A DNA stretch of 64,000 nucleotides from Squalus acanthias (Eukaryota). The translations under genes and the position numbers were made by a program. The DNA is taken from the NCBI GenBank assembly GCA_030390025.1, contig CM059437.1:76260001-76324000 (forward strand). The letters run 5' to 3'. Shown here in pieces: positions 15,750-64,000 of this stretch. Within the stretch, counting starts at the first letter, position 1; every line of letters starts with the position of its first letter. The notes under the pieces are model-generated. The model was not told where the DNA came from. It saw nothing but the letters and a program-made list of their open reading frames with translations, and did no database searches.

Positions 15750-16490
15750 GAAAGCACACAGAATTGGGGGAAACCTGGCAACATGGGTTGGAACAGCCTG
15801 TAGCAGACAGAGGATAAAGGGAGCGTTCTGATTGGTGGGATGTGGTGTTCCCCAGAGATCTGTATTGAGGCCTCAGCTTTACACACTATTAAATGACATG
15901 CATTAAAGAATAGAGAGTTGTATATCAAAGTTAGGAGGGACAGCAAGTTACATAGATGGAGCAGGAAGTTAAAAGGTCATACACAGATTAAGTGACCAGG
16001 CAAAACTCTGGCTAATGGAGTTCAGTGTGGAAATGTGGGAGGTCATCCACTTTAGATCCAAGAAAGACAAATCACAAGTATTTTCTTTATAATGAGAAAT
16101 TAGGTACTCTGCAGGAGCAAAGATTTGGGTGTTTATGTAAACAATAACTAAAAGCTAATGGACAGGTACAAAAAGTAATCAGAAAGGCTACTGGAATATT
16201 GACCTGTATCTCAAGGGGGCCTGAAATACAAAGGGGAAGAGGTTATTCTGTTGTCAAAGAAGCTTGGGCAGAGCCCATCTAGAGTACTGCATTCTGTTCT
16301 GGGTACCACACTTCAGGCAGGATAGATTGACTGCTGAGGGGGGTACAGTGCCAATTTACCAGAATGATACCAAGGTTTAAATAATAACAGGTTTCACAAA
16401 CAAGCTTGCATTCCCTTTAAAAAAGATTGAGGGGTGATCTAATTGAGGTGTTTAAAATGACAAGAGGATTTGTTAGGGTAGATAGAGAAA
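15750..16490 (+). mobile_element. Old, degraded CR1 RT fragment containing the array breakpoint; its 3' part recurs at 27918, 40789 and 53248
   Basis: Remnants KAHRIGGNLATWV, GVPQRSVLRPQL and RGDLIEVFKM, with many stops and indels. Confidence 0.8.
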
Positions 16491-16499
16491 CTTCCTTTT

Positions 16500-16930
16500 T
16501 AGGGGCAATCTGGAACAAGGCTGCAGCAGGTGACATCAGCGACAGCTCCCAGTCCACCATTGTATTGGTAGGTCACCAAGAACACTTGCATCTTTCCCAA
16601 TGGACAGGTTTCCACAGTGTACCAAGTGCCATAGACTGCACTCACATTGCCTTTTGTGCACCCCATCACCATCCTGGCATCTGATTAGAAAGGGATTCCA
16701 TTCCCTTCAGCCAGCTTGTTTGTGCCCACAGGCAGCCTTCATACAGTTCTGCCTAGTTTCCTCTCAGCAGTCACTGTTCATTCATCCTCTGCCAGTTCCA
16801 TGGGCTTTATTCCAACCAGGCCATCAGGTTACAGGCTGGCCACTGGGTCAGGTTACTGGGCAGCAACAACTATCCCCTTCAGACTCGACTCAAGATTGCG
16901 GTCATGAATCGAAGCACAGCTGGCCTACAA
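16500..16930 (+). mobile_element. Harbinger/PIF transposase remnant (also at about 28560, 41860 and 53890)
   Basis: GF..VPGAIDCTHIA followed, after a frameshift, by IRKGFHS: the HARBI1-type DDE motifs GAIDCTH and NRKG.HS. Confidence 0.8.
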
Positions 16931-16970
16931 CAAAAGTCTATTTAAATGTTGCCCATTGGTCAGGGATGGG

Positions 16971-17310
16971 GTGTCAGCCTGGCTCAGTTGGTAATGTGCT
17001 CACCTCAGTCAATAGGTCATGGCTTCAAGCCACCACTTCTAGTGCAGTACTGAGTGTAATCTTATGCTAGTGAACTGAGACCCTGTCTGCCTGTTTAAGT
17101 GGTTATGAAAGATCCAATGGCACTATACAAAAGGAATGGGGGACTGTGCCTGGTCAACATTTGTCCCCTAACTAACTAACACCAACCAAATTAACTGGTC
17201 ATTACTCCAATTGCTTTTTGTTGGAGTTTGGCTGCCACTTTGCTTACATAACTACACTTAAATAATTCATTGGCTGTGAAATCCAGAGAATGAAAATGCC
17301 AGTTCTTACT
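16971..17310 (+). mobile_element. Degraded Deu-type SINE (one per unit)
   Basis: TGGCTCAGTTGG head, AAAGATCCAATGGCACT, CTGGTCATTA and TTCATTGGCTGTGAAA align by eye with 7085-7540. Confidence 0.65.
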
Positions 17311-17399
17311 TACGAATTACCCTTTCTCTCCTCTTTTCTTCCCCCACCCAACTAGTGTAGGGGCAGGAGTCATAGCTGAAAGGACTGACCAGAAAGGGA

Positions 17400-20300
17400 T
17401 GCAAGAGTAGGTTAACTTGGAAATACTGGTGACTTTTGTTGCAACATTAGATTTGACATCTGCTTGCAGCAACTGGTTACATTTAAAATGTGCTTTTTCC
17501 TAGGTGTGTGAGCATTAAATGCTCACATTTGTGTTAAACAAAATTGGGATTAATTAAAATATAACTAGTATACAATATATAGACTAACTTATCTTGTGGC
17601 AGGTATGCAACTTCAGGTGAGGGCAGACAATGATGGGCACCAGAACTCTGCCAATTGCAAAATGGCCAGCAGAGGGTGTCTGAGCAATGCATTTTCATTC
17701 TGTAAATTACCTCAATAGGTGAAGGGAAGAGAAAAGTTAGAGCCCTTTCCACACCACTCAGATGGATGAAATTGCCAATTTTGTAACAAATGTATGAAAA
17801 GGACAGAAATCAGCCCCATTAAGCCAACCTCAATGTTATCACATCCATAACTATGCCATCTCCTGGACTGGGCAAATTAAGCCCCCCTATCTGTCAGCTC
17901 GAAAAGCAGAAATACCGTGACAACTTAAGGGGAAAAAAAGGGAGTTGAGTAAAACTCCAGGAATATGCAGTGGCCCAGGATCTCAAATCACAACTAACTA
18001 TCAACTTACCTTCTACAAATCAAAATGTCCCTTTGTCAGGAACTAGTTAAATTCCTTTTTAAAAAACAAAACTGTAGAGACTCCTTACCCACTAGATCTT
18101 GAGCCTGTTTGAGGCTCTAAAAAGAAATCCTTCCTGACATTTAACTTAGGCTATGATTTTATATACATGCACACCCAGCTCAGATCATCTATCCAACAGA
18201 CGGAGGCCAAATCTATCATTTTAAAGACCTCAAATCATTTGAGGAAAGTAGGTTGGGGTGGGGAGGAAAGTTACCTAAAGGCACAAAAAGGGGTGGGTGG
18301 GTCTCCTGGTTCAAAAAGGAGAACCAAGGGCAGTTTGGATTCCATTCTGGTGCTACCCTTCCCCACAAGGCTGCTTGACCCTACTCCCAATATTGCCAGA
18401 TCCCAGCAACCCAATACTGCCAGACTGTTCCCCTCAAGACTTCTCCCGAGACTGCCTCCACTCCCAGATCCTAGGACCCCCATCCTTTGATCTCTAGACT
18501 GCATTCCTAGTGCTTCCAATCCCAGAACCACCCCTAATGTTCAGAGATATCCCGCCACAGTGTTGCCTGATCCCAAGACCCCTTTACAAATGATTGGATT
18601 TCAGGATGCTCCCAAACCCTGCCCCTCAAAATACTGCAATACTGGAGACCACCATCCCAATGCTCCTAGAATCCAAGACCACCCCCAATGCATATAGTAT
18701 CACTGGTAATACTTAGCATAACACCCCTATTTTGACCATCAACAGTGCTACAGCAGATCTGAGTGTATAGATGTTGCGCCCCCCCCCCGCCCAAAAAAGT
18801 CAAAACCTACCACATGTCCTTTTTAAACAAAGTACATATTTCTGTTGCTGCCTGTGACTCGACCAATTTAGTGCAAAAGTCAACTTTATGGTGGAATTGC
18901 TCTCCTAAAAAGTACACATTTCTTCAGTTGAACCTGGAGCTTTAAATTCACATTATAGGGACCCTGGAATGTTGAGAAGGTACTATTGGCATTCAGTTGA
19001 AATTAGACCATCTCACCTTTTACTCTGGGGTACTGAAACTGCAGATTAGTGTTAAACCCATCATATGAAAATGTTGCACTGATGCAGTCAATTATTCTTA
19101 CTAGTTGTCTGCTATATTCTTTGGGTTGGTGTTCAGAAGGGACCTTCATTTTCCAAGTGGGAGAAGGCATATGCAGAAAAATGAGTATAAATTCCAGTCA
19201 AAGGCCACATCTTTCAGTGCAAAGCATTCAGGATAGCAGCACTCACCTGAATGAATGAATCAGCTGGCTTCAACCAACCATTTTCATAAATATTTAATCT
19301 AATAAAAGGATTCAGGCCTCAAATAACTGAGTGAGTTTACACTTTATGTACCAAGTGGGTAGTTTACCAACTTTGTGCTTTTACAAATGATATTCAATAG
19401 TGCGGAGAATTAGAAAGGATTGCAAAAATCACAGGTCTTGTAGAAAATTCCGTAGAAAAGTTGAGTAAATTGGCTGATTAATGATATTGCTTGGCTGAAA
19501 TATATCAGACAAAATATGAAGCAATCAAAAATCACCTTCGTTCACCATCAAATGTTACCAAACCAGTTAATTTGTTTCTCAAACCAAGAAATCTGGAACC
19601 AGCAACTTCCACAAAAATGAACCAAAATTGCTCAAATAATTTCTGCAGTTTAAGCCACCATTTTCTTCTACTTAGTCAGTATGTACAGCCAAACCAAACA
19701 TTTATAACAAATGTGTAACAAAATGCAATCTTAACCAGGGTGTCATGTTGAATATTAGATCCGTGAAGCCAGTGTCTTTCAGCATCAGCAAGATATATTT
19801 TCACCTCACTGATGGAGTAAATTGCCTGTATTACAGCAATGAACAATCAGCTCTAGATTGCAGTGAATATTAGAAGTCACAATGTCCTGGCTTACTCCTG
19901 AGCAATATCACAGGAAAGCCACTAGTAAATAGAAAGCATCTCTTTAGTGGGCATCAAACCTTTTTTGCATTTTGAGAGACTTGTGGCAGTGTTTCAGTGA
20001 GGAGACAAGCAAGATCGAGGCCCACATGGGGTCAGACAGGATTGTCATTATTACTAGAGAGCAGAGGCTACATTCAAGTTAATTTGTAGGTAGAGAGGCT
20101 GAATGGGCTAGAGCACATTCTACTGTCACTGCATTAACTTGACTAAAAGGAGAGGTTTACTAGACAAATTCATTGACAAAATGACAGCTTGCCATTCATA
20201 TCTGGTGTTATAAAGAGATCACCTTTCATAAGATTGGAGAAGCATGTGACTTTAGCATCAGTTAGCAGGGGGTTGCCCACTATTACAGTAGCATGATAGG

Positions 20301-20650
20301 TAGGGAGGAGTTATGTTTAATACAGGAGCCACTTATACAAGGGAAGTGATACCAACCCAGAGAATCTGAATCAGACAGACGTCTACTACACTGTCAAAAT
20401 GCAGATTATAGACCAGCACACACGATATGCCATAAGCTGCAGCCCCAAAACTGGTTTGCTTTTGGAAATAGATTTTAAGCAGCTAGACATTGCTGAACAA
20501 TTGATTAAAGGAACATTACAACCAAAGGTTAAAGCCAAATTACCCATTTCAAATTGAACTAATTGGGACCTCAGACAAAGCAATGTTAACATGCAAATAG
20601 CAATCCCAATTCTCAACTGTCTCCTGTACACTATATCCAACTGTGCCGAG
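17400..20650 (-). pseudogene. Possible decayed multi-exon gene, tentatively ZP-N-repeat-like (one per unit)
   Basis: At least nine minus-strand G|GTRA donor sites, a signal-peptide-like first segment and Cys-containing fragments; reading frames are broken by stops and indels that vary between units. Confidence 0.35.
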
Positions 20651-20973
20651 GAACCAATCCAACTTTACAAGTTGCAAAAAAAGTTTAAAAACTAGACCCT
20701 AGTAATGTTGCAAGCTGGCAGCAACTAAAAGCAGTTTCCATTAGTGCAATATAAGAGCAGTTAGCTGCATTCCAGATGAACATGCTCATCAAGATCTACA
20801 CAATCATTTAAATAACCAATTTGCTTGCCAAAAGGTGGTATAGCACTATTGTATTAAGGGCCCACAGTCACTACATCAAGATAACCATCATGCAGTGTTG
20901 ATTTAGGAATACTGTACAGAACAAGCTCTTCCTAAAAATTCTGAGACCATGCACAAAATCTGCAAAATGTAGC

Positions 20974-20979
20974 TTTATT
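20974..20979 (-). terminator. Polyadenylation signal of ZP3-like copy 1
   Basis: AATAAA on the minus strand ~85 nt after the stop codon; conserved in all four units. Confidence 0.75.
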
Positions 20980-21064
20980 TGAGTCAATTACAACTGTTAG
21001 AAGTACATTTAACATCTAGGTTGGACAGCTTGCTTCAACTTTGGTAGTCCACCACCTTCAATGA

Positions 21065-24000
21065 TCAGCAGCTATAGTGTACATGCCCGATCTTCCATTT
21101 GTACAGGCTTAGGAGCAGGACCCCTAAAAAGCAAGCTAGCAGTGGAGTAGCCAAAAGCATTACTCTTTGATTCTCTGTTTAAAAAAAAGGTTGTCAGTCA
21201 AGAATTGCTCAATCAAATGTATCTACCATAAGAAATCTCAGTAATACATGGGAACATTGAAGTCAGTGTTGGGGGGGGGGGGGCGGGGGGGGGCCGCTTC
21301 TGTTACATTAGTCAGATTTTAGCCAATGGTCTGGATACTTCCACTGTTAAGAGTAATTAATGTCAAATTGGATAAGTCCCATTAGTTTAGAGTAAGAAAT
21401 GGCTTGTCCCTGACTGGATGTTTTATAGCCCTGCAAGGCAGGCATTAGCCATGGTTAGGAACAATCTTTTACAGTATCCTCATTTGAAGTACATTGCCAA
21501 TTTACCTCTTTGAATCGTGGCTGAAGTTCTGGATCCAGACTGGGCACTGTGCACTCTCAATGGACCAACTTTAATTATGTGACTAATACCAGTTTTTGAT
21601 TCTAAAAAGGAATTTAAAAAAAGTTAGCACACAAGTTCTAGAATACTGTACATTCAGCTATTTAGTTAATGGAATAGTACCTTGGGCTCGTTTATGGCGA
21701 GATTGGATAGGCTGGCAGATTGAGTTACAGCAGTCACACAGGGAACTTTGTAATGGGGCATCCAAGAGCTGCCAACTAAACAGAATTATACAAGTAACAA
21801 ACATTCTACTAGAGGGGATTTATATAAAGCTAAGAAATGGGACCTCCATTGATTAGAAGTACTAGGAAATGTCTTCCTATGATGCTTCTAGACAATAAGC
21901 ATGTCTGGAAGTTCAGTAGTTTTTGTTCATTCTCTTAATCAGCTCTACATTTGTTTCACCATCTAAGAATGCATGTAGATTATTCATAGTACCAAGTGAA
22001 TATTCTCTATTCAACTTAAGGTGGTGTAATAATTTCAGGCTTGCCAGGCACTCATTGGGTGGGGGGGGGGGGGGTTAAGAAAGAGGGATAAAATAAGCCT
22101 AGTTAAATTCAATAGGTTTTACTCCAGCTATTGTTCTAGAAAGGCACTCAAGACACCACATTAAATTTTAAAGTGATCTTTTCTTCATCTGCCCATTCAT
22201 CTACAGGGCCCACTAATCATTCAAGCTTTAATGCTGGCCAAAAAAGCCTACTCAAAAACAAAGGCACAAAGCATCTTTAAGGACACTTTTGCTACTCACC
22301 TTTCAGTTTGCTGGTCAAAAGAACATGCTTTGTGTAAAAGACTTGCATCCCAATTAGGGTCCCATACCAAAGCTTTACAGTGTATATAAATCTGTAGAAA
22401 GTGAATATTGTGCATCATTAAGTACAGTCTATGTCAATACACATCTCTTGCATAATGTCAGTATGGTTCCAAGTAAAACTCATCTTCAAAGCTGATATCT
22501 ATGACCTAGTTGTTTTGACTTATAGGGTCAGTTTATGGCCGACTTGAAGGATCCTATCTGGCATTTTATTCTAAAATCTTAATTGCAAGGAATGACTACA
22601 AATGCCACATTAAAAATCCAGATAATTTGCTCAATTTCAGTGGGGCGATTTAACAGTAGTCAAATCTAGCTTAATCAAGGTAGATGGCAATTGTGCCTTT
22701 TGGTACAATAGTATTAAGAACAAGCCAACAAGTCAGTCCATTTGAACTAGCAAAAGTTGAAGCTACATTGGAAGTGATAAGGCACCAAAAATCTTTGCAA
22801 ACAACTGTATGGAGTTACGTTACAGATCAGCTATGCCCTTATTGAAGTGGAACAGGCTGGAGGGGCTAAATAGCCTACTCCAGTTTCTAATCCAGTTAGT
22901 AGTAAAGCAAGTGGCAGAAGTCTCTTAAAATGGACAGTACCTTTAATTGTGACAGTTTGTTTTAATAGTGAACTAAGCTGATCAACTATGCTCAAAGGAC
23001 TTCAATGAGAATTGCATGTATTTTGAGAATTGCATGTATGAGTTTCACATTTATGGTGCAGAGAGGACAGCAACTCAGCATTAGATTAAAAACTTGCTTA
23101 GTGTATCTTTAATCATGCATCAAGTTTTCCAAACTTACATCAGTTTCCTCCAGACCAATGAATTTAAATGCCTGCACAACAAACTGAAGGTGTGACCCAT
23201 CACTTCTGGGCAAGTACTTGGAATTTCCAGTTTGCCCATCAACAAGACATCTATAGGAACAGGAAAAAAAAAGTTTAACCCACAACCAAGTTACTAATTT
23301 GCAAAATATCACTATCCTGTCAGCCTCATACCCATAGTTGTTTACGATGGTATAATTCTCTGGAGATTTGTCCAGTGAGCTTGTCGGGGTGGCGATACAT
23401 TCTTCCATATAGAGGCGGAGGTCCTGGTGATATGTGGCAATGACAGAGGCTTCTAGGTTAATGGAAGCGCCCAGGAAGAACACAGAATCTGGCCTTTCAG
23501 CAGTCCAATCATCTGCAGCAGGAAGTTGCATACATTATTCCAACAGTTCACAATGGTCTATAGTCAAGTATGAATGCTCACCCTTTTGCTTTAGCAACAA
23601 AACCATCAACATCTAGACTAAGCAAGAGGGGTCTGGCTATGAGAAAGCAGTTACCATAGTGTACTTGAACTACATAAACCACTTCCTTGGAGATCAAATC
23701 AGCCTATACTGCAGGGATGCAGGTCTTTCCACTAGTGGGGAATGAAGTCAGTGAACCTGCAAGGAGTTTAAAAATCAACACATCTATTCATAATTCAGAT
23801 GTCATCAGGGGCTACTAATGCAGCATGAATTGGGATCAATGCTGTGGAAGAGATGCAAGTACTGGAAAACACATAAATCCTGGGTATATATTAAAGGTGT
23901 TGTCATAACCACCACACCACTGCAAAGTGATTGCTGACTTGCAACACAAGTGTCAGCACCATTGGGTCCAAACCAGACTAGAGCAGAGCAATTTGAAATT

Positions 24001-25943
24001 CCTTCAGGAAGGAACCATCACACAGCTTGGGCTCATTGCCACATGGCGTACTTCAAGGTGATGCACGATTTGCTCATTGAGATCCCCTGGATAGTCAAAA
24101 AGGTTTCAAAATATACCCCCATGCAGCTTTTTCAGTAGCAAGAATATAGGTGTGCAGCCATGAGTAGCTCACAGTACAACTAGTTCTGCCAATTGTACAC
24201 AACTTCTTGCAACTACTGGTAGGGTAATTTAACTATAGCCTGGCAATTAGGGTCATCAACTCTGGTTGGCTGTATTCCTGGATGCATCACCACACGAGCT
24301 CCTGTCTCCACTATTGGTCACCCAACATGTCCATACTCAGTGCTCTAGCCCCACATCAGTTGCAAAGCAACTAGACCATTATCTGATTGGATGATTCTTG
24401 ACTGTCAAACAGCAGCAATATTTTTAGAACTAGTAAACAAAATGGTCAATGATTTTAAAAACATTTAACACCTCTAGGATTTTTCCATGCAGCAATGTCC
24501 TGGAGATATGAGTCATTAATTCCTGGAGACTCCAGAGCAATCTTGAGGGTTGGTAACCCACGAGATAAAATTCAATTTGGAATTAGACACCAGTTTGGTT
24601 ACTATGTGCAGTACCTCACTGTTCACCCATCATAGCATTGGTGTTTAAAGATTAAGCCATCATCCAACTTTAGAAAGCAAGACATTGATACTATACACAA
24701 GACCAACTTCCTGTGTACTCAAGGCAAGGGGTGGAAGAAAAGTAGTTCTCACTACATTTACCATGCACAGGCAAGAAACTCACTCCACAGCATGTCTTCT
24801 ACCTCCCCTAACACCACAAAACACACCACTCGTTATAGAAAAGTATCTCACCAGTCATTATTTTCATGGAAAAGACCAAGCTGCCATCTCCAGCCAGAAA
24901 CCCAGTTACCGGAAATGCTGTTGAGGGTACAGGTACTTCATCCCTAGAGAAAGAACAGGGACATTAACTGATGTGTCCAAATTCAGCCCGAGTGCTGGCC
25001 ACAGGGCAAGAGGTGGCTATTTTAAACTTGACTTTCAGCCAATGTGGGGTCAGGAGAAGCCAACAGCCACAAAGCAACTGGCCAAATACAGCAATTAAAT
25101 AGACTCAAGTGTCTGGACATTTTGTCTCATTACTCCAGACTTATTACAAAAGCAAAATACTGCAGATGCTGGAAATCTGAAATAAAACAAGAGATGCGGG
25201 AAACACTCATTGACCTGAAACGTTAAATGTTTCTCTCTCCATTGATGCTGCCGGACCTGAGTATTTCCAGCATTTTCCAGACGAGTGGTGTTAAAAACCA
25301 GCCAATAATATACACAAACTATGGAACCTACGAGGAGGCCACAGAGCAAGTTAGTAGTGACATTAAGGTTTACTGTGCTGAGTGAGAGATCCCCAGGCTG
25401 GGGTTGGATCTTACACTGGATAGCGACATTCCAGGCGAGTGCTGAGCTGCTCCATCCCAGAGGCTGGGCTGGCTTCATACTTCAGGTAGTTCCAGTAAAC
25501 CATCTCCTTATCGGTCACCTGAGAGGGGTAACAAAAAGGGAGGGTCAGAACTCCAGCCTGGAGTTAGGACAACAGCCCGAGCGGGCGGTAGAGCCTCTCA
25601 CACCCACCAGTCGGCCAGCCCGGCAATCCTGTAGTTCATACTGGAAGGAGAGGACTCGGGGGGAGCTGAAGCCTGAAGCAGGGCAGTTTCCCAGCCGGAA
25701 AGCCGAGGCCTCAACGCCAGCGAAGAAATCCAGCGATACAAACACAGTCAGGGTAGAGTTGCCGCAGGAGTGAGCGATGCCATGTTGAAGAACTGAAATA
25801 GAAAGAAAGTTAGAGCTGGAGAGGAGAGAAATGCATCAATTCAGAGCTACCGACCGTAAAAAAAAAATACAAATAAAACCTGTTTGTTGCTCGCCAGCCA
25901 CAACAACCACCAAGAACAGCACTAAACTCCCGAGACAAATCAT
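21065..25943 (-). CDS. ZP3: Zona pellucida ZP3/ZPC-like egg-coat protein, copy 1 (intact, 10 exons, 376 aa)
   Basis: Exons 25943-25880, 25792-25608, 25518-25415, 24943-24852, 23512-23332, 23250-23139, 22391-22300, 21775-21681, 21601-21506, 21174-21065; all GT-AG with matching phases, 1131 nt. Signal peptide MICLGSLVLFLVVVVAG; four ZP-N Cys; IHP LVFSMKIMTDDW; ZP-C Cys; ZP3-specific CDCCNSIC; furin site RHKR; EHP VGPLRV; TM VMLLATPLLACFLGVLLLSLY. Exact paralogue subtype unknown. Confidence 0.92.
24248..24560. mobile_element. Short hAT-like MITE in ZP3 intron 4 (all units)
   Basis: Degenerate TIRs TAGGGT(TG)TCAAC ... GTTGGTAACCC; clearest in unit 4 near 62034. Confidence 0.5.
25148..25280. repeat. 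Short inverted remnant of a common elasmobranch repeat, probably a Penelope-like terminal repeat (all units; related sequence at 3960-4050)
   Basis: AAATACTGCAGATGCTGGAAATCTGAAATAAAAC followed by the oppositely oriented GACCTGAAACGTTAA...TATTTCCAGCATTTTC. Family call is from recall. Confidence 0.45.
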
Positions 25944-25992
25944 TTTAGAGCAGGCTGGGCTACTGACTGCAGGAAAGGGGGGTCGAGAGCTG

Positions 25993-26085
25993 TTTTATAA
26001 CGAGCCCCATTAACACTCTGACACCTGCTCATTCAAGGTCATTTAAATTCCTGAGCCAAACCATCACTCGGACACTTGATCCAAT
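25993..26085 (-). promoter_or_regulatory. ZP3-like proximal promoter: TATA box, E-box, nuclear-receptor extended half-site, CCAAT
   Basis: TATAAAA (minus, 25993-25999) 50 nt upstream of the ATG; CAGGTG 26022-26027; TCAAGGTCA 26033-26041; CCAAT 26081-26085; all retained in the four copies. Confidence 0.65.
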
Positions 26086-26234
26086 TTACAGGCCCATTAA
26101 AAATCTGGAGAATGTGTGGTGATCACTCAGGAAAGCAACAAGGATTTAGCAACAGCGAGGGAAGGAGAAACACGTGGCGATTCACCGTCAGTTTTTTTTC
26201 ACTCAGCAAGGCTGAGGGGTTTATTCATTACCAT

Positions 26235-26884
26235 GGGCTAGAAATTCGGTGCATTTGCACCTCTCGGGGCACAAACGACTTCTTGCGCAGGCGCGGCGCT
26301 GCTAACGACTCCCGCTAAATTCAGCGGGAGTTTAGTGGTGGCGGTAAATGGTAGCGCCCCACTCCGTTGCGCAGGCGATGAGGACGTCATCAACGTGCGC
26401 AGAGCCCCGTTTTTGCCCCGCCTGCAAAATTGGCCGTGCCCCCTGAATCTGCGCCAGGGCGATGACAGCGACCGATTCAGGGGGCGGGAACGGAGCGGCA
26501 GGAGGCTCGCGGGTCGGTAAGTAAAGGGGAGGTGGTGGGTGGGGGAAAAAAATCATCCGACTTACTTGTCGCGGCCCGTTGCCTCTTTGAACGCGGAGTC
26601 CATGCCGCGATCTGGCAGCCTCTGATGCTGGCACGGCACCCCGCTCCCCGGTGGTCCAGGTAGGGCCCTGCAGAGTTGTGGGCTTGGGCCCTCCCCTTTA
26701 ATGAGGGGAGGAGCCCTTCCATGCGGCAGTGCTACGTGGCCCAGTGCATAGTGCTGCAGAACACACCGCCCCGATATTCAGCATTAGCGCTCTAAGAAGG
26801 AAGTGGAGCTCTTAAATTAGCGCTCCACCTCCCTCTTGGGGTGCTAAAACTGAAGTTACCGGTCGCTAATGAATTTTTCCCCCC
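26235..26884. mobile_element. GC/CpG-rich TIR element of the 3252/5133 family (also about 39155-39804 and 51714-52352)
   Basis: Ends GGGCTAGAAATTCGG and ATGAATTTTTCCCCCC; shares GGAAGTGGAGC..TAAAT..GCTCCAC with the 3252 element. Confidence 0.65.
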
Positions 26885-26895
26885 GTGTGTATTAT

Positions 26896-27821
26896 CAGGG
26901 CTGGCGTTAGGGTAAATGGCTTGGGTGAACTTGTATTTTGGCGCCTTTCTTTGAGATTAAGTATGTAGTAGTATTAGCAAAAGTTTCAGAAATAAAGCTG
27001 TAATCTCAAAAGTTTTTTTATAATTTAAATGATATAAAGCATAAAAAATAACAATATAGCTAAGTGACAATTAAACTAAACATTAAATTAAACACTAAAT
27101 TAAATAACAATAACAAATTTAAAAAACTTTGTTCATCAAGATATTTTGAACCACATCATGCTGGACAGACAGGATGGCCAGCAAAGATAGCCTGTTGTCT
27201 CCCATGGTCGATCGCAATATGTTTTTATGAGCTTCAATTTCAAGAAGCTCCGTTCGCTGCTCGCCACCGATACGGGCATGGTTAACAGGATCCTGAGTGC
27301 CATCCGTCGCCACCGATACGGGCATGGTTAACAGGATCCTGAGTGCCATCCATCGCCACCGATACGGGCATGGTTAACAGGATCCTGAGTGCCATCCGTC
27401 GCCACCGATACAGGCATGGTTAACAGGATCCTGAGTGCCATCCATCGCCACCGATACGGGCATGGTTAACAGGATCCTGAGTGCCATCGATCGCCACCGA
27501 TACGGGCATGGTTAACAGGATCCTGAGTGCCATCCATCGCCACCGATACGGGCATGGTTAACAGGATCCTGAGTGCCATCCATCGCCACCGATACGGGCA
27601 TGGTTAACAGGATCCTGGGTGCCATCCATGTGTGTGGGAACTTGCTCTTGGAACTTGAAGTTTGCTCTTCTTGTGCAGCACTACAGTCTGTTGGAAGCAG
27701 ACTTTGGATATTGCCAAGTTCTTGTCAGAGATCGACGTCGTTAATGTCAAACCCTCTTGACCACGTTGCCACCCCTGACCATGGTGCCCTGGGCGGGTGC
27801 CCACCTGTAAGGCCGGCCCTA
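26896..27821 (-). mobile_element. Internally deleted hAT DNA transposon (units 1-3)
   Basis: TIRs CAGGGCTGGCGTTA and TAAGGCCGGCCCTA; minus-strand remnant ALRILLTMPVSVASSERSFLKLKLIKT / LRSTMGDNRLSLLAILSV is the hAT C-terminal dimerisation domain. Confidence 0.85.
27262..27629. repeat. 46-bp minisatellite, 8 copies
   Basis: CGCCACCGATACGGGCATGGTTAACAGGATCCTGAGTGCCATCCRT repeated with an exact 46-bp period. Confidence 0.97.
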
Positions 27822-29723: not shown

Positions 29724-29991
29724 AGAAGTCTGCTTTCTTGCATCTCTGTAGATACTTGATGTCTGTTGATATGCGCGATCTTCTTGGAGATCCTCTCCAC
29801 TTTGAGCCGGTAGTTTGTGGTGTCGATAATGGCCATGATGCGGAGAGATGCAAGAAAGCAGATCTCCGCATCATGGCCACTATCGACACCACAAACTGCC
29901 GGCTCAAAGTGGAGAGGATCTCCAAGAAGATCGCGCATATCGACACAGACATCAAGTATCTACAGAGATGCAAGAACGCAGATCTCTGCAT
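29724..29991. mobile_element. 268-bp palindromic insertion with 14-bp target-site duplication, probably Penelope-like element derived
   Basis: TSD CAATTGCAAAATGG at 29710-29723 and 29992-30005; inverted arms 29729-29846 and 29863-29982; empty site in units 1 and 3. Confidence 0.85.
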
Positions 29992-40178: not shown

Positions 40179-40500
40179 CGCCACCGATACGGGCATGGTT
40201 AACAGGATCCTGAGTGCCATCCGTCGCCACCGATACGGGCATGGTTAACAGGATCCTGAGTGCCATCCATCGCCACCGATACGGGCATGGTTAACAGGAT
40301 CCTGAGTGCCATCCGTCGCCACCGATACGGGCATGGTTAACAGGATCCTGAGTGCCATCCGTCGCCACCGATACGGGCATGGTTAACAGGATCCTGAGTG
40401 CCATCCGTCGCCACCGATACGGGCATGGTTAACAGGATCCTGAGTGCCATCCATCTCCACCAATACGGGCATGGTTAACAGGATCCTGAGTGCCATCCAT
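40179..40500. repeat. 46-bp minisatellite, 7 copies
   Basis: Same unit as 27262-27629. Confidence 0.97.
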
Positions 40501-52729: not shown

Positions 52730-52959
52730 CGCCACCGATACGGGCATGGTTAACAGGATCCTGGGTGCCATCCGTCGCCACCGATACGGGCATGGTTAAC
52801 AGGATCCTGAGTGCCATCCGTCGCCACCGATACGGGCATGGTTAACAGGATCCTGAGTGCCATCCGTCGCCACCGATACGGGCATGGTTAACAGGACCCT
52901 GAGTGCCATCCATCGCCACCGATACGGGCATGGTTAACAGGATCCTGAGTGCCATCCAT
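52730..52959. repeat. 46-bp minisatellite, 5 copies
   Basis: Same unit as 27262-27629. Confidence 0.97.
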
Positions 52960-55057
52960 GTGTGTGGGAACTTGCTCTTGGAACTTGAAGTTTGCTCTTC
53001 TTGTGCAGCACTACAGTCTGTTGGAAGCAGACTTTGGAGATTGCCAAGTTCTTGTCAGAGAGCGACGTCGTTAATGTCAAACCCTCTTGACCACGTTGCC
53101 ACCCCTGACCATGGTGCCCTGGGCGGGTGCCCACCTGTAAGGCCGGCCCTATATAGTGTTACAAAAGCAGCCCAGAACTATTCAACCTGGAATTTACAGA
53201 AACTTGCAGTACAATAATTGCCACAATTCTGTGCCCCAGTGTGTGCCCTGTATTGAGGCCTCAGCTTTACACACTATTAATGACATGCATTAAAGAATAG
53301 AGAGTTGTATATCAAAGTTAGGAGGGACAGCAAGTTACATAGATGGAGCAGGAAGTTAAAAGGTCATACACAGATTAAGTGACCAGGCAAAACTCTGGCT
53401 AATAGAGTTCAGTGTGGAAAGGTGGGAGGTCATCCACTTTAGATCCAAGAAAGACAAATCACAAGTATTTTCTTTATAATGAGAAATTAGGAACTCTGCA
53501 GGAGCAAAGATTTGGGTGTTTATGTAAACAATCACTAAAAGCTAATGGACAGGTACAAAAAGTAATCAGAAAGGCTACTGGAATATTGACCTGTATCTCA
53601 AGGGGGCTGAAATACAAAGGGGAAGAGGTTATTCTGTTGTCAAAGAAGCTTGGGCAGAGCCCATCTAGAGTACTGCATTCTGTTCTGGGTACCACACTTC
53701 AGGCAGGATAGATTGACTGCTGAGGGGGGTACAGTGCCAATTTACCAGAATGATACCAAGGTTTAAATAACAGGTTTCACAAACATAGCTTGCATTCCCT
53801 TTAAAAAAGATTGAGGGGTGATCTAATTGAGGTGTTTAAAATGACAAAAGGATTTGTTAGGGTAGATAGAGAAACTTCCTTTTTAGGGGCAATCTAGAAC
53901 AAGGCTGCAGCAGGTGACATCAGCAACAGCTCCCAGTCCACCATTGTATCGGTAGGTCACCAAGGTTCTCCACACCAAGAACACTTGCATCTTTCCCAAT
54001 GGACTGGTTTCCACAGGGTACCAGGTGCCATAGACTGCACTCACATTGCCTTTTGTGCACCCCATCACCATCCTGGCATCTGATTAGAAAGGGATTCCAT
54101 TCCCCTCAGCCAGCTTGTTTGTGCCCACAGGCAGCCTTCATACAGTTCTGCCTAGTTTCCTCTCAGCAGTCACTGTTCATTCATCCTCTGCCAGTTCCAT
54201 GGGCTTTATTCCAACCAGGCCATCAGGTTACAGGCTGGCCACTGGGTCAGGTTACTGGGCAGCAACAACTATCCCCTTCAGACTTGACTCAAGATTGCGG
54301 TCATGAATCGAAGCACAGCTGGCCTACAACAAAAGTCTATTTAAATGTTGCCCATTGGTCAGGGATGGGGTGTCAGCCTGGCTCAGTTGGTAATGTGCTC
54401 ACCTCAGTCAAAAGGTCATGGCTTCAAGCCACCACTTCGAGTGCAGTACTGAGTGTAATCTTATGCTAGTGAACGGAGACCCTGTCTGCCTGTTTAAGTG
54501 GTCATAAAAGATCCAATGGCACTATACAAAAGGAATGGGGGACTGTGCCTGGTCAACATTTGTCCCTTAACTCACACCAACCAAATTAACTGGTCATTAC
54601 TCCAATTACTTTTTGTTGGAGTTTGGCTGCCACTTTGCTTACATAACTACACTTAAATAATTCATTGGCTGTGAAATCCAGAGAATGAAAATGCCAGTTC
54701 TTACTTACGAATTACCCTTTCTCTCCTCTTTTCTTCCCCCACCCAATTAGTGTAGGGGCAGGAGTCATAGCTGAAAGGACTGACCAGAAAGGGATGCAAG
54801 AGTAGGTTAACTTGGAAATACTGGTGACTTTTGTTGCAACATTAGATTTGACATCTGCTTGCAGCAACTGGTTACATTTAAAATGTGCTTTTTCTAGGAG
54901 TGTGAGCATTAAATGCTCACATTTTTCTGTTAAAATTGGGATTAATTAAAATATAACTAGTATACAATATATAGACTAACTTATCTTGTGGCAGGTATGC
55001 AACTTCAGGTGAGGGCAGACAATGATGGGCACCAGAACTCTGCCAATTGCAAAATGG

Positions 55058-55325
55058 AGAAGTCTGCTTTCTTGCATCTCTGTAGATACTTGATGTCTGT
55101 CGATATGCGCGATCTTCTTGGAGATCCTCTCCACTTTGAGCCGGCAGTTTGTGGTGTCGATAGTGGCCATGATGCGGAGAGTTGCAAGAAAACAGATCTC
55201 CGCATCATGGTCACTATCGACACCACAAACTGCCGGCTCAAAGTGGAGAGGATCTCCAAGAAGATCGCGCATAGCGACACAGACATCAAGTATCTACAGA
55301 GATGCAAGAAAGCAGATCTCTGCAT
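55058..55325. mobile_element. Second copy of the 268-bp palindromic insertion (unit 4)
   Basis: Same site and TSD (55044-55057 and 55326-55339) as in unit 2. Confidence 0.85.
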
Positions 55326-58300
55326 CAATTGCAAAATGGCCAGCAGAGGGTGTCTGAGCAACGCATTTTCCTTCTGTAAATTACCTCAATAGGTGAAGGG
55401 AAGAGAAAAGTTAGAGCCCTTTCCACACCACTCAGATGGATGAAATTGCCAATTTTGTAACAAATGTATGAAAAGGACAGAAATCAGCCCCATTAAGCCA
55501 CCTCAATGTTATCACATCCATAACTATGCCGTCTCCTGGACTGGGCAAATTAAGCCCCCCTATCTGCCAACTCAGGAAAAGCAGAAATACCTTTGACAAC
55601 TTAAGGGGGGGAAAAAAAGGGAGTGGAGTAAAACTCCAGGAATATGCAGTGGCCCATGATCTCAAATCACAACTAACTATCAACTTACCTTCTACAAATC
55701 AAAATGTCCCTTTGTCAGGAACTAGTTAAATTCCTTTTTTTAAAAAAAAAAACTGTAGAGACTCCTTACCCACTAGATATTGAGCCTGTTTGAGGCTCTA
55801 AAAAGAAATCCTTCCTGACATTTAACCTAACTTTGGCTATGATTTTATATACATGCACACCCAGCTCAGATCATCTATCCAACAGACGGAGTCCAATCCT
55901 ATCATTTTAAAGACCTCAAATCATTTGAGGAAAGTAGGTTGGGGTGGGGAGGAAAGTTACCTAAAGGCACGAAAAGGGGTGGGTGGGTCTCCTGGTTCAA
56001 AAAGGAGAACCAAGGGCAGTTTGGATTCCATTCTGGTGCTACCCTTCCCCACAAGGCTGCTTGACCCTACTCCCAATATTGCCAGATCCCAGCAATCCCC
56101 AATACGGCCAGACTGTTCCCCTTAAGACTTCTCCCTAGACTGCCTCCACTCCCAGATCCTAGGACCCCCCTCCCATCTCCATCTTTTGATCTAGACTGCA
56201 TTCCTACTGCTTCCAATCCCAGAACCACCCCTAATGTTCAGAGATATCCCTCCAGTGTTGCCTGATCCCAAGACCCCTTTACGAATGATTGGATTTCAGG
56301 ATGTTCCCAAACCCTGCCCCTCAAAATACTGCAATACTAGAGACCACCATCCCAATGCTCCTAGAATCCAAGGCCACCCCCAATGCATATAGTGTCACTG
56401 GTAATACTACTTAGCATAACAGCCCTATTTTGACCTTCAACAGTGCTAGAGCAGATCTGAGTGTATAGATGTTGCCCCCCAAAAAAAGTCAAAACCTACC
56501 ACATGTCCTTTTTAAACAAAGTACATATTTCTGTTGCTGCCCGTGACTCGACCAATTTAGTGCAAAGGTCAACTTTATGGTGGAATTGCTCTCCTAAAAA
56601 GTACACATTTCTGCAGTTGAACATGGAGCTTTAAATTCACATTATAGGGACCCTGGAACTTTGAGAAGGTGCTATTGGCATTCAGTTGAAATTAGACCAT
56701 CTCACCTTTTACTCGGTGTACTGAAACTGCAGATTAGTGTTAAACCCATCATATGAAAATGTTGCACTGATGCAGTCAATTATTCTTACTAGTTGTCTGC
56801 TATATTTTGGGTTGGTGTTCAGAAGGGACCTTCATTTTCCAAGTGGGAGAAGGCATATGCAGAAAAATTGGTATAAATGCCAGTCAAAGGCCACATCTTT
56901 CAGTGCAAAGCATTCAGGATGGCAGCACTCACCTGAATTAATGAATCAGCTGGCTTCAACCAACCATTTTCATAAATATTTCATCTAATGAAAAGGATTT
57001 AGGCCTCATAACTGAGTGAGTTTACACTTTACGTACCAAGTGGGTAGTTCACCAACTTTGTGCTTTTACAAATGATATTCAATAGTGTGGAGAATTAGAA
57101 AGGATTGCAAAATCACAAGTATTGCTGTAAATTATTGGCTGATTGCTACATATTTCTGCCAAGCAATATCAAAAATCACCTTCATTCACCATCAAATGTC
57201 ACCAAACCAGTTAATTTGTTTCTCAAACCAAGAAATCTGGAACCAGCAACTTCCACAAAATGAACCAAAATTGCTCAAATAATTTCTGCAGTTTAAGCCA
57301 CCATTTTCTTCTACTTAGTCAGTATGTACAGCCAAACCGAACGTTTATAACAAGTGTAACAAAAATGCAATATTAACCAGGGTGTCCTGTTGAATATTAG
57401 ATCCGTGAAGCCAGTGTCTTTCAGCTTTAGCAAGATATATTTTCACCTCTGATGGAGTAAATTGTCCATTGCTGCAATACAGGCAATCAGCGCTAGATTG
57501 CAGTGAATATTAGAAGTCACAATGTCCTGGCTTACTCCTGAGCAATATCACAGGAAAGCCACTAGTAAACAGAAAGCATATCTTTAGTGGGCATCAAGCC
57601 TTTTTTGCATTGAGAGAGACTTGTGGCAGTGTTTCAGTGAGGAGATAAGCAAGATCGAGGCCCACATGGGGTCAGACAGGATTGTCATTATTACCAGAGA
57701 GCAGAGGCTACATTCAAGTTAATTTGTAGGTAGAGAGGCTGAATGGGCTACAGCACATTCTACTGTCACTGCATTAACTTGACTAAGAGGAGAGGTTTAC
57801 TAGACAAATTCATTGACAAAATGACAGCTTGCCATTCATATCTGGTGTTATACTAAAGAGATCACCTTTCATAAGATTGGAGCAGCATGTGATTTTGGCA
57901 TCAGTTAGCAGGGGGTTGCCCACTATTACAGTAGCATGATAGGTGGGGAAGAGTTATGTTTAATACAGGAGCCACTTACATACAAGGGGAGTGATACAAA
58001 CCCAGAGAATCTGAATCAGACAGACATCTACTACACTGTCAAAAATGCAGATTATAGACCAGCATGCAAGATACGCCATAAGCTGCAGCCCCAAAACTGG
58101 TTTGCTTTTGGAAATAGATTTTAAGCAGCTAGACATTGCTGAACGATTGATTAAAAAGGAACATTACAACCAAAGGTTAAAGCCAAATTACCCATTTCAC
58201 ATTGAAACCTCAGACAAAGCAATGTTAACATGCAAATAGCAATCCCAATTCTCTCCTGTACATTATATCCAACTGTGCCGAGGAACCAATCCAACTTTAC

Positions 58301-58687
58301 AAGTTGCAAAAAGTTTACAAACTCGACCCCTAGTAATGATGTTGCAAGCTGGCAGCAACTAAAAGCATTAGTGCAATACAAGAGCAGTTAGCTGCATTCC
58401 AGATGAACATGCTCATCAAGATCTACACAATTTAAATAACCAATTTGCTTGCCAAAAGGTGGTATAGCACTATTGTATTAAGGGCCCACAGTCACTACAT
58501 CAAGATAACCATCATGCAGTGTTGATTTAGGAGTACTGTACAGAACAAGCTCTTCCTAAAAATTCTGAGACCATGCACAAATCTGCAAAATGTAGCTTTA
58601 TTTGAGTCAATTACAACTGTTAGAAGTACATTTAACATCTAGGTTGGACAGCTTGCTTCAACTTTGGTAGTCCACCACCTTCAATGA

Positions 58688-61600
58688 TCAGCAGCTATCG
58701 TGTACATGCCCGATCTTCCATTTGTACAGGCTTAGGAGCAGGACCCCCAAAAAAGCTAGCAGTGGAGTAGCCAAAAGCATTACTCTTGATTCTCTGTTTA
58801 AAAAAAAAGGTTGTCAGTTGTCAAGAATTACTCAATCAAATGTATCTACCATAAGAAATCTCAGTAATATACATGGGAACATTGAAGTCAGTGTTGGGGG
58901 GGGGGGGGGTAGAGTGGTAAAGAATTACCTAAATTAACAGCTAGCAATCAATTACTATATGCTGTGAACAAGGTTATTTTAGGCCAAGAATCTATATAGG
59001 ATCCAACACGATAAGAATTTAAAAATTCTACAAGTACAATTGAAGCAGTTGTCAATTTAATCTGATCAAATAGGCTTCTGTTACATTAGTCAGATTTTAG
59101 CCAATGGTCTGGATACTTCCACTGTTAGGAGTAATTAATGTCAAATTGGATAAGTCCCATTAGTTTAGAGTAAGAAATGGCTTGTCCCTGACTGGATGTT
59201 TTATAGCCCTGCAAGGCAGGCATTAGCCATGTTAGGAACAATCTTTTACAGTATCCTCATTTGAAGTACATTGCCAATTTACCTCTTTGAATTGTGGCTG
59301 AAGTTCTGGATCCAGACTGGGCAATGTGCACTCTCAATGGACCAACTTTAATTATGTGACTAATACCAGTTTTTGATTCTAAAAAAGGAATTTAAAAAGT
59401 TAGCACACAAGTTCTAGAATACTGTACATTCAGCTATTTAGTTAATGGAATAGTACCTTGGGCTCGTTTATGGCGAGATTGGATAGGCTGGCAGATTGAG
59501 TTACAGCAGTCACACAGGGAACTTTGTAATGGGGCATCCAAGAGCTGCCAACTAAACAGAATTATACAAGTAACAAACATTCTACTAGAGGGGATTTATA
59601 TAAATCTAAGAAATGGGACCTCCATTGATTAGAAGTACTAGGAAATGTCTTCCTATGATTCTTCTAGACAATAAGCATGTCTGGAAGTTCAGTAGTTTTT
59701 GTTCATGCTCTTAATCAGCTCTACATTTGTTTCACCATTTAAGAATGCATGTAGATTATTCATATTACCAAGTGAATATTCTCTATTCAACTTAAGGTGG
59801 TGCAATAATTTCAGGCATGCCAGGCACTCATTGGGTGGGGGGGGGAAGGGGTTTAAGAAAGAGGGATAAAATAAGCCTAGTTAAATGCAATAGGTTTTAC
59901 TCCAGCTATTGTTCTAGAAAGGCACTCAAGACACCACATTAAATTTTAAAGTGATCTTTTCTTCATCTGCCCATTCATCTACAGGGCCCACTAATCATTC
60001 AAGCTTTAATGCTGGCCAAAAAAGCCTACTCAAAAACAAAGGCACAAAACATCTTTAAGGACACTTTTGCTACTCACCTTTCAGTTTGCTGGTCAAAAGA
60101 ACATGCTTTGTGTAAAAGACTTGCATCCCAATTAGGGTCCCATACCAAAGCTTTACAGTGTATATAAATCTGTAGAAAGTGAATATTGTGCATCATTAAG
60201 TGCAGTCTATGTCAATACACATCTCTTGCATAATGTACAGTATGGTTCCAAGTAAAACTCATCTTCAAAGCTGATATCTATGACCTAGTTGTTTTGACTT
60301 GGCTTATTAGGGTCAGTTTATGGCTGACTTGAAGGATCCTATCTGGCATTTTATTCTAAAATCTAAATTGCAAGGAATGACTACAAATGCCACATTAAAA
60401 ATACAGATAATTTGCTCAATTACAGTGGGGTGATTTAACAGTAGTCAAATCTAGCTTAATCTCAAGGTAGATGGCAATTGTGCCTTTTGGTACAATAGTA
60501 TTAAGAACAAGCCCACAGAATGGCTGCCAACAAGTCAGTCCATTTGAACTAGCAAAAGTTGAAGCTACATTGGAAGTGATAAGGCACCAAAAATCTTTGC
60601 AAACAACTGTATGGAGTTACGTTACAGATCAGCTATGCCCTTATTGAAGTGGAACAGGCTGGAGGGGCTAAATAGCCTACTCCAGTTTCTAATCCAGTTA
60701 GTAGTAAAGCAAGTGGCAGAAGTCTCTTAAAATGGACAGTACCTTTAATTGAGAGAGTTTCAGTTTTAATAGTGAACTAAGCTGATCAACTATGCTCAAA
60801 GGACTTCAATGAGAATTGCATGTATTTTGAGAATTGCATGTATGAGTTTCACATTTATGGTGCATAGTGGACAGCAACTCAGCATTAGATTAAAAGCTTG
60901 CATAGTGTATCTTTAATCATGCATCAAGTTTTCCAAACTTACATCAGTTTCCTCCAGACCGATGAATTTAAATGCCTGCACAACAAACTGAAGGTGTGAC
61001 CCATCACTTCTGGGCAAGTACTTGGAATTTCCAGTTTGCCCATCAACAAGACATCTATAGGAACAGGAAAAAAAAAGTTTAACCCACAACCAAGTTACTA
61101 ATTTGCAAAATATCACTATCCTGTCAGCCTCATACCCATAGTTGTTTACGATGGTATAATTCTCTGGAGATTTGTCCAGTGAGCTGGTCGGGGTGGCGAT
61201 ACATTCTTCCATATAGAGGCGGAGGTCCTGGTGACATGTGGCAATGACAGAGGCTTCTAGGTTAATGGAAGCGCCCAGGAAGAACACAGAATCTGGCCTT
61301 TCAGCAGTCCAATCATCTGCAGCAGGAAGTGGCATACATTATTCCAACAGTCCACAATTGTCTATAGTCAAGTATGAATGCTCACCCTTTTGCTTTAGCA
61401 ACAAAACCATCAACATCTATACTAAGCAAGAGGGGTCTGGCTATCAGAGAAAGCAGTTATCATAATGTACTTGAACTACATAAACCACTTCCTTGGAGAT
61501 CAAATCAGCCTATACTGCAGGGATGCAGGTCTTTCCACTAGTGGGGAATGAAGTCAGTGAACCTGCAAGGAGTTTAAAAATCAACACATCTATTCATAAT

Positions 61601-63715
61601 TCAGATGTCATCAGGGGCTACTAATGCAGCATGAATTGGGATCAATGCTGTGGAAGAGATGCAAGTACTGGAAAACACATCCAAATCCTGGGTATATATT
61701 AAAGGGGTTGTCATAACCACCACACCACTGCAAAGTGATTGCTGACTTGTCAGCACCATTGGGTCCAAACCAGACTAGAGCAGAGCAATTTGAAATGCCT
61801 TCAGGAAGGAACCATCACAGCGCTTGGGCTCATTGCCACATGGAGTACTTCAAGGTGATGCATGATTTGCTCATTGAGATCCCCGGGATAGTCAAAAAGA
61901 TTTCAAAATATACCCCCATGCAGCTTTTTCAGTAGGAAGAATTAGTTGTGCAGCCATGAGTAGCTCACAGTACAACTAGTGCTGCCAATTGTACACAACT
62001 TCTGGTAGGGTAATTTAACTATAGCCTGGCAATTAGGGTTGTCAACTCTGGTTGGATGTATTCCTGGATGCATCACCACACGAGCTCCTGTCTCCACTAT
62101 TGGTCACCCAACATGTCCATACTCAGTGCTCCAGCCCCACATCAGTTGCAAAGCAACTAGACCATTATCTGATTGGATGATTCTTGACTGTCAAACAGCA
62201 CCAATATTTTTAGAACTAGTAAACAAAATGGTCAATGATTTTAAAAACATTTAACACCTCTAGGATTTTTCCATGCAGCAATGTCCTGGAGATATGAGTC
62301 ATTAATTCCTGGAGACTCCAGAGCAATCTTGAGGGTTGGTAACCCACGAGATAAAATTCAATTTGGAATTAGACACCAGTTTGGTTACTATGTGCAGTAC
62401 CTCACTGTTCACCCATCATAGCATTGGTGTTTAAAGATTAAGCCATCATCCAACTTTAGAAAGCAAGACATTGATACTATACACAAGACCAACTTCCCGT
62501 GTACTCAAGGCAAGGGGTGGAAGAAAGAATAGTTCTCACTACATTTACCACACACAGGCAAGAAGCTCACTCCACAGCAGGTCTTCTACCTCCCCTAACA
62601 CCACAAAACACACCACTCGTTATAGAAAAGTATCTCACCAGTCATTATTTTCATGGAAAAGACCAAGCTGCCATCTCCAGCCAGAAACCCAGTTACCGGA
62701 AATGCTGTTGAGGGTACAGGTACTTCATCCCTAGAGAAAGAACAGGGACATTAACTGATGTGGCCAGCACTCAGGCTGAATTTGGACACAGAGCAAGAGG
62801 TGGCTATTTTAACTTGACTTTCAGCCAATGTGGGGTCAGGAGAAGCCAACAGCCACAAAGCAACTGGCCAAATACAGCAATTAAATGGACTCAATTTTCT
62901 GGACATTTTGTCTCATTACAATAGCAAAATACTGCAGATGCTGGAAATCTGAAATAAAACAAGAGATGCAGGAAACACTCATTGACCTGAAACGTTAAAT
63001 GTTTCTCTCTCCATTGATGCTGCCGGACCTGAGCATTTTCTGTTTTTTTGGCGTTAAAAACCAGCCAATAATATACTTCAATATACACAAACTATGGAAC
63101 CTACGAGGAGGCCACAGAGCAAGTTAGTAGTGACATTAAGGTTTACTGTGCTGAGTGAGAGATCCCCAGGCTGGGGTTGGATCTTACACTGGATAGCGAC
63201 ATTCCAGGCGAGTGCTGAGCTGCTCCATCCCAGAGGCTGGGCTGGCTTCATACTTCAGGTAGTTCCAGTAAACCATCTCCTTATCGGTCACCTGAGAGGG
63301 GTAACAAAAAGGGAGGGTCAGAACTCCAGCCTGGAGTTAGGACAACAGCCCGAGCGGGCGGTAGAGCCTCTCACACCCACCAGTCGGCCAGCCCGGCAAT
63401 CCTGTAGTTCATACTGGAAGGAGAGGACTCGGGGGGAGCTGAAGCCTGAAGCAGGGCAGTTTCCCAGCCGGAAAGCCGAGGCCTCAACGCCAGCGAAGAA
63501 ATCCATCGATACAAACACAGTCAGGGTAGAGTTGCCGCAAGAGTGAGCGATGCCATGTTGAAGAACTGAAATAGAAAGAAAGTTAGAGCTGGAGAGGAGA
63601 GAAATGCATCAATTCAGAGCTACCGACCGTAAAAAAAAATACAAATAAAACCTGTTTGTTGCTCTCCCACCACAACAACCACCAAGAACAGCACTAAACT
63701 CCCGAGACAAATCAT
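58688..63715 (-). CDS. ZP3: ZP3-like copy 4: exons 1-9 appear intact; same last-exon lesion (TAA 58780-58782)
   Basis: ATG at 63715; exon structure as copy 1; Tyr-to-Cys change in exon 5 (IATCHQDL). Confidence 0.85.
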
Positions 63716-64000
63716 TTTAGAGCAGGCTGGGCTACTGACTGCAGGAAAGGGGGTCGAGAGCTGTTTTATAACGAGCCCCATTAACACTCTGACACCTGCT
63801 CATTCAAGGTCATTTAAATTCCTGAGCCAAACCATCACTCGGACACTTGATCCAATTTACAGGCCCATTAAAAATCTCGAGAATGTGTGGTGATCACTCA
63901 GGAAAGCAACAAGGATTTAGCAACAGCGAGGGAAGGAGAAACACGTGGCGATTCACCGTCAGTTTTTTTTCACTCAGCAAGGCTGAGGGGTTTATTCATT

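Follow-up and report, generated by a model that had tools for sequence, protein, structure and literature searches.

A tandem array of a zp3f-type ZP3-family gene, with intact and altered copies, next to MTFP1 in the shark Squalus acanthias

Soluble egg-coat subunits made in the liver of fishes have no membrane anchor. From a mechanistic perspective, ZP precursors are held locked by a hydrophobic patch until cleavage at a furin site frees them for polymerisation, as described in passages of PMC8391237 and bioRxiv 2023.06.21.544075, and secretion without a membrane domain requires intact patches according to a passage of the former. Tandem amplification of ZP3 genes, which the first-pass annotation of the present locus had mentioned for teleosts, is documented there, together with pseudogenes, in passages of PMC13704971 and PMC6262864. 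Among the described paralogs, zp3f.2 is presented as a germ-cell marker in zebrafish (a passage of PMC9309457), and passages of PMC13704971 list it once per catfish genome, with a female bias of 750- and 2,000-fold in catfish gonads. ZP3.3 is placed in Neopterygii and Sauria only in the relevant passage of PMC6262864. For the egg-coat genes of cartilaginous fishes, little was found in print. In a literature search covering mainly open-access journals, a ZP3 array in sharks did not turn up, which is a weak absence; nothing appeared under the terms looked up in PMC13361971 and PMC8455134, nor were passages on the loss of the membrane domain in fish ZPs found in the literature looked up by term.

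The stretch of DNA analysed here (the window, 64,000 nucleotides of Squalus acanthias) contains four direct units of 12.1-12.9 kb, the fourth of which is cut by the window end, as revealed by self-BLAST and a four-way alignment (Table 1). Pairwise substitutions between units U1-U4 amount to 1.49-2.36% over 9.5-11.5 kb aligned, and each pair of units is separated by 34-79 indel events. Every unit carries a gene of ten exons on the minus strand, with GT-AG at all boundaries, and since MTFP1 lies on the plus strand, the ZP3-family copies and MTFP1 are convergent. This arrangement of at least four near-identical units of 12-13 kb with ten-exon genes, which had been proposed beforehand, is borne out by self-BLAST, alignment and exon mapping. 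A promoter in each unit, likewise proposed, is predicted from the same upstream motifs (presumably a TATA box, an E-box, a CCAAT box and a nuclear-receptor half-site) found in all copies, the comparison for U4 covering the 285 bp that lie inside the window. Allowing one mismatch, no oestrogen-response palindrome was detected in the 1.2 kb preceding U1-U3. The array may continue beyond U4, past the right window edge; on its left side, none of the 58 tblastn matches revealed ZP-like sequence before 15860, and exon 1 of MTFP1 was not found within window positions 1-6500. Upstream of MTFP1 exon 2, an unbroken LINE frame of 831 aa on the plus strand (3-2495), with endonuclease and reverse transcriptase, runs off the left window end; it is possibly young, and we take it to be of the CR1 type. 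In Heterodontus francisci, the orthologue of the array gene is annotated as galactosylceramide sulfotransferase isoforms X5-X8, which is probably a misannotation of merged loci and also provides a hint of synteny, as the galactosylceramide sulfotransferase gene presumably adjoins MTFP1 in human.

Table 1. Positions of the features of the array and its surroundings in the window.
Feature	Positions	Strand	Remarks
MTFP1 exons 2-4, single-copy	6394-6521, 8765-8997, 12726-12795	+	Pfam MTP18
Repeat unit U1, left-edge copy	15860-27917	+	self-BLAST, four-way alignment
Repeat unit U2	27918-40788	+	self-BLAST, four-way alignment, junction motif
Repeat unit U3	40789-53247	+	self-BLAST, four-way alignment, junction motif
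Repeat unit U4	53248-64000	+	window ends 285 bp upstream of U4 start codon
Unit junction, 25 nt identical	27904-27928; 40775-40799; 53234-53258	+	
Gene copy U1, intact, 376 aa	21065-25943	-	anchored
U1 exons 1-5	25943-25880, 25792-25608, 25518-25415, 24943-24852, 23512-23332	-	
U1 exons 6-10	23250-23139, 22391-22300, 21775-21681, 21601-21506, 21174-21065 (stop)	-	
Gene copy U2, pseudogene	33654-38863	-	also has exon-10 deletion
Gene copy U3, exons 1-9 intact	46462-51428	-	exon-10 deletion
Gene copy U4, exons 1-9 intact	58780-63715	-	exon-10 deletion as U3
U1 proximal promoter, predicted	25944-26230	-	variable sites 3/255 aligned across four copies
U1 upstream motifs, predicted	from ATG: TATA -56; CAGGTG -84; TGACCTTGA -98; ATTGG -142; CACGTG -233	-	
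U1 poly(A) signal AATAAA	20974-20979	-	also in the other three copies
Near-palindromic insertion, 282 bp	29710-29991 (U2); 55044-55325 (U4)		14-bp target duplication; U2 and U4 only
SINE-like insertion private to U2	31301-31750	-	tail matches LINE 3' end at 2475-2592
SINE-like insertion private to U3	41417-41845	+	other site, opposite orientation
46-bp minisatellite	27261-27629 (U1, 8 copies); 40178-40498 (U2, 7); 52729-52957 (U3, 5)		

The protein encoded by U1 shows, in this order, a signal peptide, ZP-N, ZP-C, a furin motif (RHKR at 303), a hydrophobic patch and a membrane helix. Pfam recognises ZP-C (E 3.8e-11) and, weakly and below the cut-off, ZP-N (E 0.0037), a module without any extra N-terminal domain. 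The furin motif followed by the patch is present at the same position in U3 and U4, and the GP core of the patch can be seen in 76 of 98 aligned rows. Twelve conserved cysteines (31, 58, 78, 114, 187, 210, 251, 269, 290, 292, 293 and 297) are near-invariant in the alignments; twelve cysteines including a C-terminal cluster represent the ZP3 pattern, and mammalian ZP3 has eight exons, compared to ten in the shark gene. A structure model of the orthologue from the sawshark Pristiophorus japonicus, not of the window's own protein, matches ZP3 structures, and the best PDB matches are chicken ZP3 and fish egg-coat ZP3 (profile search; Foldseek of the sawshark model, E 7e-21). This model, based on 98 sequences, reached a pLDDT of 85.7, an earlier one from 16 sequences being unusable (pLDDT 43); its patch forms a strand (313-325), which is followed by the membrane helix (332-370), and the orientation of ZP-N relative to ZP-C is not reliable (pTM 0.59, large rmsd).

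A query with exons 5-6 identified 11 proteins among 61 candidates, all of them elasmobranch ZP3-like, and a profile search yielded 873 proteins at E <=0.001, 150 of which were listed. The closest relative is the sawshark protein, with 90.5% full-length identity to U1, and that of Heptranchias reaches 85.6%, values that suggest a squalomorph shark. Phylogenetic trees were built with FastTree for 161 domains and with IQ-TREE for 75 hand-picked rows of these 161, the groups being taken from our own earlier tree. In the IQ-TREE phylogeny, the U1-U4 gene falls in a cartilaginous-fish clade (SH-aLRT 97), the sister group of which (SH-aLRT 97) comprises proteins from coelacanth, lungfish, Xenopus, lizards, platypus, paddlefish and gar together with teleost zp3f.1/zp3f.2; in the domain trees, the zp3f clade also takes in sturgeon and monotreme relatives. 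Taken together, the cartilaginous-fish and zp3f-containing groups stand apart from the other ZP3 rows, 32 in number and unnamed (SH-aLRT 100), which identifies the gene as a zp3f-type paralog. The phylogeny thus confirms the first-pass assignment to the ZP3 family and corrects it on the paralog: the gene does not group with canonical ZP3 (ZP3.1) but with zp3f-named proteins, with an SH-aLRT of 100 against the unnamed rows. The shark array gene is a member of an ancient paralog group of jawed vertebrates to which teleost zp3f also belongs. Our guess is that it corresponds to ZP3.3, whose ranges as given in the passage of PMC6262864 overlap this clade. An egg-coat role is likely on the basis of orthology and through the expression of the zebrafish and catfish orthologues mentioned above. 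A role of zp3f in skin or mucus was not supported: the literature passages found point to oocytes, and one match was only a primer name. The platypus and echidna members of the clade are about 720 aa long; the platypus protein is matched along two stretches, with 37% identity between its halves, and so has two ZP modules in one protein.

Exon-by-exon reading frames show that the copies are in intact, pseudogene and altered C-terminus states, in agreement with the first-pass annotation. Exon 10 of U1 is in frame as in other sharks, so that U1 represents the ancestral state. In U2, a net +1 frameshift in exon 2 (at about 38573-38571) leads to a stop (38558-38556) after 73 aa. The altered C-terminus, which had been read as part of the divergence of the copies, goes back to a single deletion of 1 bp early in exon 10, common to U2, U3 and U4, three of the four copies, and not to separate divergence. 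With the default acceptor, U3 and U4 are predicted to encode 344 aa, keeping the furin site and the hydrophobic patch and lacking the membrane helix (helix hydropathy 0.53, versus 2.43 in U1). A stop codon in the last exon is not expected to trigger nonsense-mediated decay, and since that of U3 and U4 sits there, their transcripts should not be subject to it. U4 additionally carries S327I and Y176C, the latter an unpaired added cysteine in ZP-C. In the intron preceding exon 10, U2 shows a 42-bp tandem duplication just upstream of the acceptor (33929-34013), and U1 is without 144 bp.

Regarding the origin of the array, the 25-nt junction motif occurs exactly three times, whereas 100 shuffles gave 0.00 occurrences on average. 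The decayed remnant of a LINE reverse transcriptase (15745-16483) crosses position 15860 into the unique flank and begins at the junction in U2 and U3, and the sequence on the opposite side of the junction has no further match within the window. Since only one junction side is LINE-derived, LINE-LINE homologous recombination was rejected as the origin of the first duplication, and a single founding duplication without such homology is indicated: the first tandem pair would have formed when one break inside the LINE remnant was fused to an unrelated stretch upstream of the gene, and later copies would have come from misaligned recombination. The copies are mosaics. At 55 informative sites, U1 groups with U3 in 33, with U2 in 18 and with U4 in 4, and these sites are arranged in runs: the partition switches 16 times along the unit, where shuffled sites give 29 switches (p about 0.0002). 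Over its 3' half, U1 stands apart from the other copies, and at 40 of the 93 indel loci it is set against U2-U4. This mosaic structure points to unequal crossover or conversion. As the copies exchange sequence, the birth-and-death array postulated in the first-pass annotation holds for the presence of decayed copies and not in its pure form.

Several insertions mark individual copies. The 282-bp near-palindromic one, which we take to resemble the start of a Penelope-like element, was assigned to no convincing family by Pfam, and neither was the fragment 16421-16681. The SINE-like insertions of U2 and U3 are 93% identical, and we infer that they entered the two units separately, after the mosaic had formed. 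The minisatellite is a handy copy-specific marker; next to it, at 27122-27373, lies a weak remnant of a hAT dimerisation domain (Pfam, below cut-off). In the region of introns 3-4, a block at 24903-25476 pairs U1=U3 against U2=U4 with a difference of about 5%, much above the rest, and may be an older allele or a conversion tract.

In terms of age, the branches leading to the copies measure 0-0.006 (IQ-TREE), versus about 0.04 back to the sawshark split, that is, about a tenth of that distance, which is a lower bound for the array because of conversion between copies. The youth claimed for the array is thus relative, given a divergence of about 2% and three post-duplication insertions: the array is recent compared with the split from the sawshark orthologue and is not a fresh copy-number variant. 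Absolute dating was abandoned, since the epaulette-shark rate of 7e-10 per generation (from a passage of PMC10587355) converts 1% per lineage into about 14 million generations, which looks too old, and only the relative age is retained.

We favour, with moderate confidence, the interpretation that four or more zp3f-type copies form a tandem array that was probably generated by one duplication followed by unequal crossing-over and gene conversion, and that they encode what is likely an oocyte-made subunit of the egg-coat filament. The edge copy U1 would have retained the ancestral anchor, and its product would be a standard anchored precursor at the oocyte membrane, cut at RHKR so that the patch is released and polymerisation is allowed. 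The 1-bp deletion in exon 10 would have had a single origin and spread to U2-U4 by descent or conversion. U3 and U4 would produce an anchorless version of the U1 precursor, secreted as a locked and soluble form and adding subunits once cleaved; both keep the hydrophobic patch, the feature to which a passage of PMC8391237 ties anchorless secretion. U2 would be dead, probably since recently. The locus shows that ZP genes have been amplified locally in a vertebrate other than a bony fish, and that the ZP3 paralog concerned is one that has received little study. A single genome holding anchored and anchorless versions that are nearly identical would constitute a natural test of the need for the ZP3 anchor in assembly.

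The alternative that survives best is that only U1 works, U2-U4 being dying or dead and their anchorless products not being built into the coat; we consider it unlikely. Human ZP stops between the furin site and the membrane helix are described in patients with thin or absent zona, which makes a failure of U3 and U4 to incorporate a live rival, and the mammalian membrane domain helps to regulate incorporation (both in passages of PMC8391237). The frameshift in three of four copies and the added cysteine of U4 fit such a decay, and if U3 and U4 are silent, the array would be an ordinary decaying duplication. Over exons 1-9, with the U2 frameshift codon left out, 6 nonsynonymous changes were counted versus 29 expected from the intron rate, and 8 synonymous ones versus 8.7 (omega about 0.22, p 2e-7); this depletion indicates that the copies have been under constraint during most of the time since they arose. 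The deficit recurs in the broken U2 (1 nonsynonymous versus 7.1 expected), so the selection signal lags behind the loss of function. Against decay, U3 and U4 have kept exons 1-9 intact, and the two copies differ there by 3 nonsynonymous changes where the intron rate predicts 9.7 (p=0.013), although at the local rate of the exon-10 region the expectation falls to 4.2 and the test is not significant (p=0.40). For U2-U4 at this local rate, 5 nonsynonymous changes stand against 10 expected (p=0.066), and around exon 10 their divergence is 1.28% versus 2.32% in introns (p=0.059). Selection on the copies after the loss of the anchor is thus only suggestive. The conservation of the promoters across copies also speaks against decay, as does the frequency of anchorless predicted models in the family, some of them possibly incomplete: the helix is present in 21 of 37 rows of the clade and in 28 of 61 other rows, leaving 16 and 33 without it. 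As these counts are similar inside and outside the zp3f clade, anchor loss is not special to it.

A plain dosage effect, in which U3 and U4 splice to the AG located two bases downstream and supply more of the same protein, is improbable. The shifted acceptor does yield, in both copies, an open frame of 374 aa with a restored segment that scores as a membrane helix, and a later 3-bp deletion in this stretch of exon 10 keeps the frame, so the anchor could be rescued through this weak nearby site. However, the first AG is a CAG after a T-tract and the second, 2 nt on, is a GAG; splicing generally favours the first of two nearby AGs, and among acceptor contexts GAG is the poorest. With the default site, only one of the four visible copies makes the ancestral anchored protein, which weakens the simple dosage array put forward by the first-pass annotation. 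A passage of PMC13704971 interprets the catfish arrays in terms of dosage; in the same paper, the relation between copy number and chorion thickness is nonetheless not significant (rho 0.286, p 0.493). Finally, an assembly artefact in which haplotypes or noisy reads were laid in tandem is highly improbable: although one block pairs U1+U3 and U2+U4, as expected from two haplotypes of a two-gene array, it is contradicted by three internal junctions in place of a repeated unique flank, by differences of 1.5-2.4% in all six pairs with no allele-like pair, by private insertions with target duplications, by an enrichment of CpG transitions (34 of 171), by the low share of small indels in long homopolymers (14 of 56), by the unbroken 831-aa frame nearby and by the absence of gaps in the window (zero N).

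Returning to the favoured array of anchored and anchorless copies, the comparison with related loci allows a bolder extension, namely that the zp3f locus repeatedly evolves a pair of anchored and soluble proteins (in gar, teleosts, Narcine and this shark), caught here in the middle of the switch and with the soluble copies selectively retained. This extension is tentative and rather doubtful; if true, a single lost base spread through the inner copies would turn extra genes into secreted, locked subunits. The elasmobranch ZP3-like orthologues (Pristiophorus UniRef100_UPI00398F410E, Heptranchias XP_067862415/6 and Narcine bancroftii XP_069789511-522) share the same protein layout. More than one predicted gene model was found in two of 19 cartilaginous-fish species, Heptranchias and Narcine. 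The two models of Heptranchias perlo are 99.2% alike and both anchored, and of the three of Narcine bancroftii, two stop at a common ENQ point and have no membrane helix, with RHKQ as furin motif. The patch exon is kept in these two anchorless models and skipped in the anchored one. The copies of each species group together in the tree, so the duplications look independent or homogenised. Among the cartilaginous-fish predicted models of at least 250 aa, 8 of 34 are without helix, among them three from Chiloscyllium and two isoforms from Hypanus.

Within the same clade, the gar pair XP_006640496/497 consists of consecutive models, one with and one without helix, which are 66.6% identical, and teleost zp3f.1/zp3f.2 are named as tandem duplicates, the named models having no membrane helix. 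These teleost and gar proteins are 33-42% identical to that of the sawshark and represent old, diverged duplicates, unlike the near-identical units of the shark. The ZP3/ZP4 arrays of catfish and other teleosts, according to passages of PMC13704971 and PMC6262864, likewise mix tandem copies with pseudogenes, and dosage has been proposed for them; as described there, the catfish arrays are composed of many small genes in both orientations, whereas in the shark a whole unit of 12-13 kb is repeated head to tail. Canonical ZP3 (chicken 3NK3/3NK4 and the fish filament 8BQU), for its part, shares with the shark gene the ZP-N plus ZP-C fold, the cysteine pattern, the furin motif and the patch, but shows only about 29-30% identity and belongs to a separate paralog clade.
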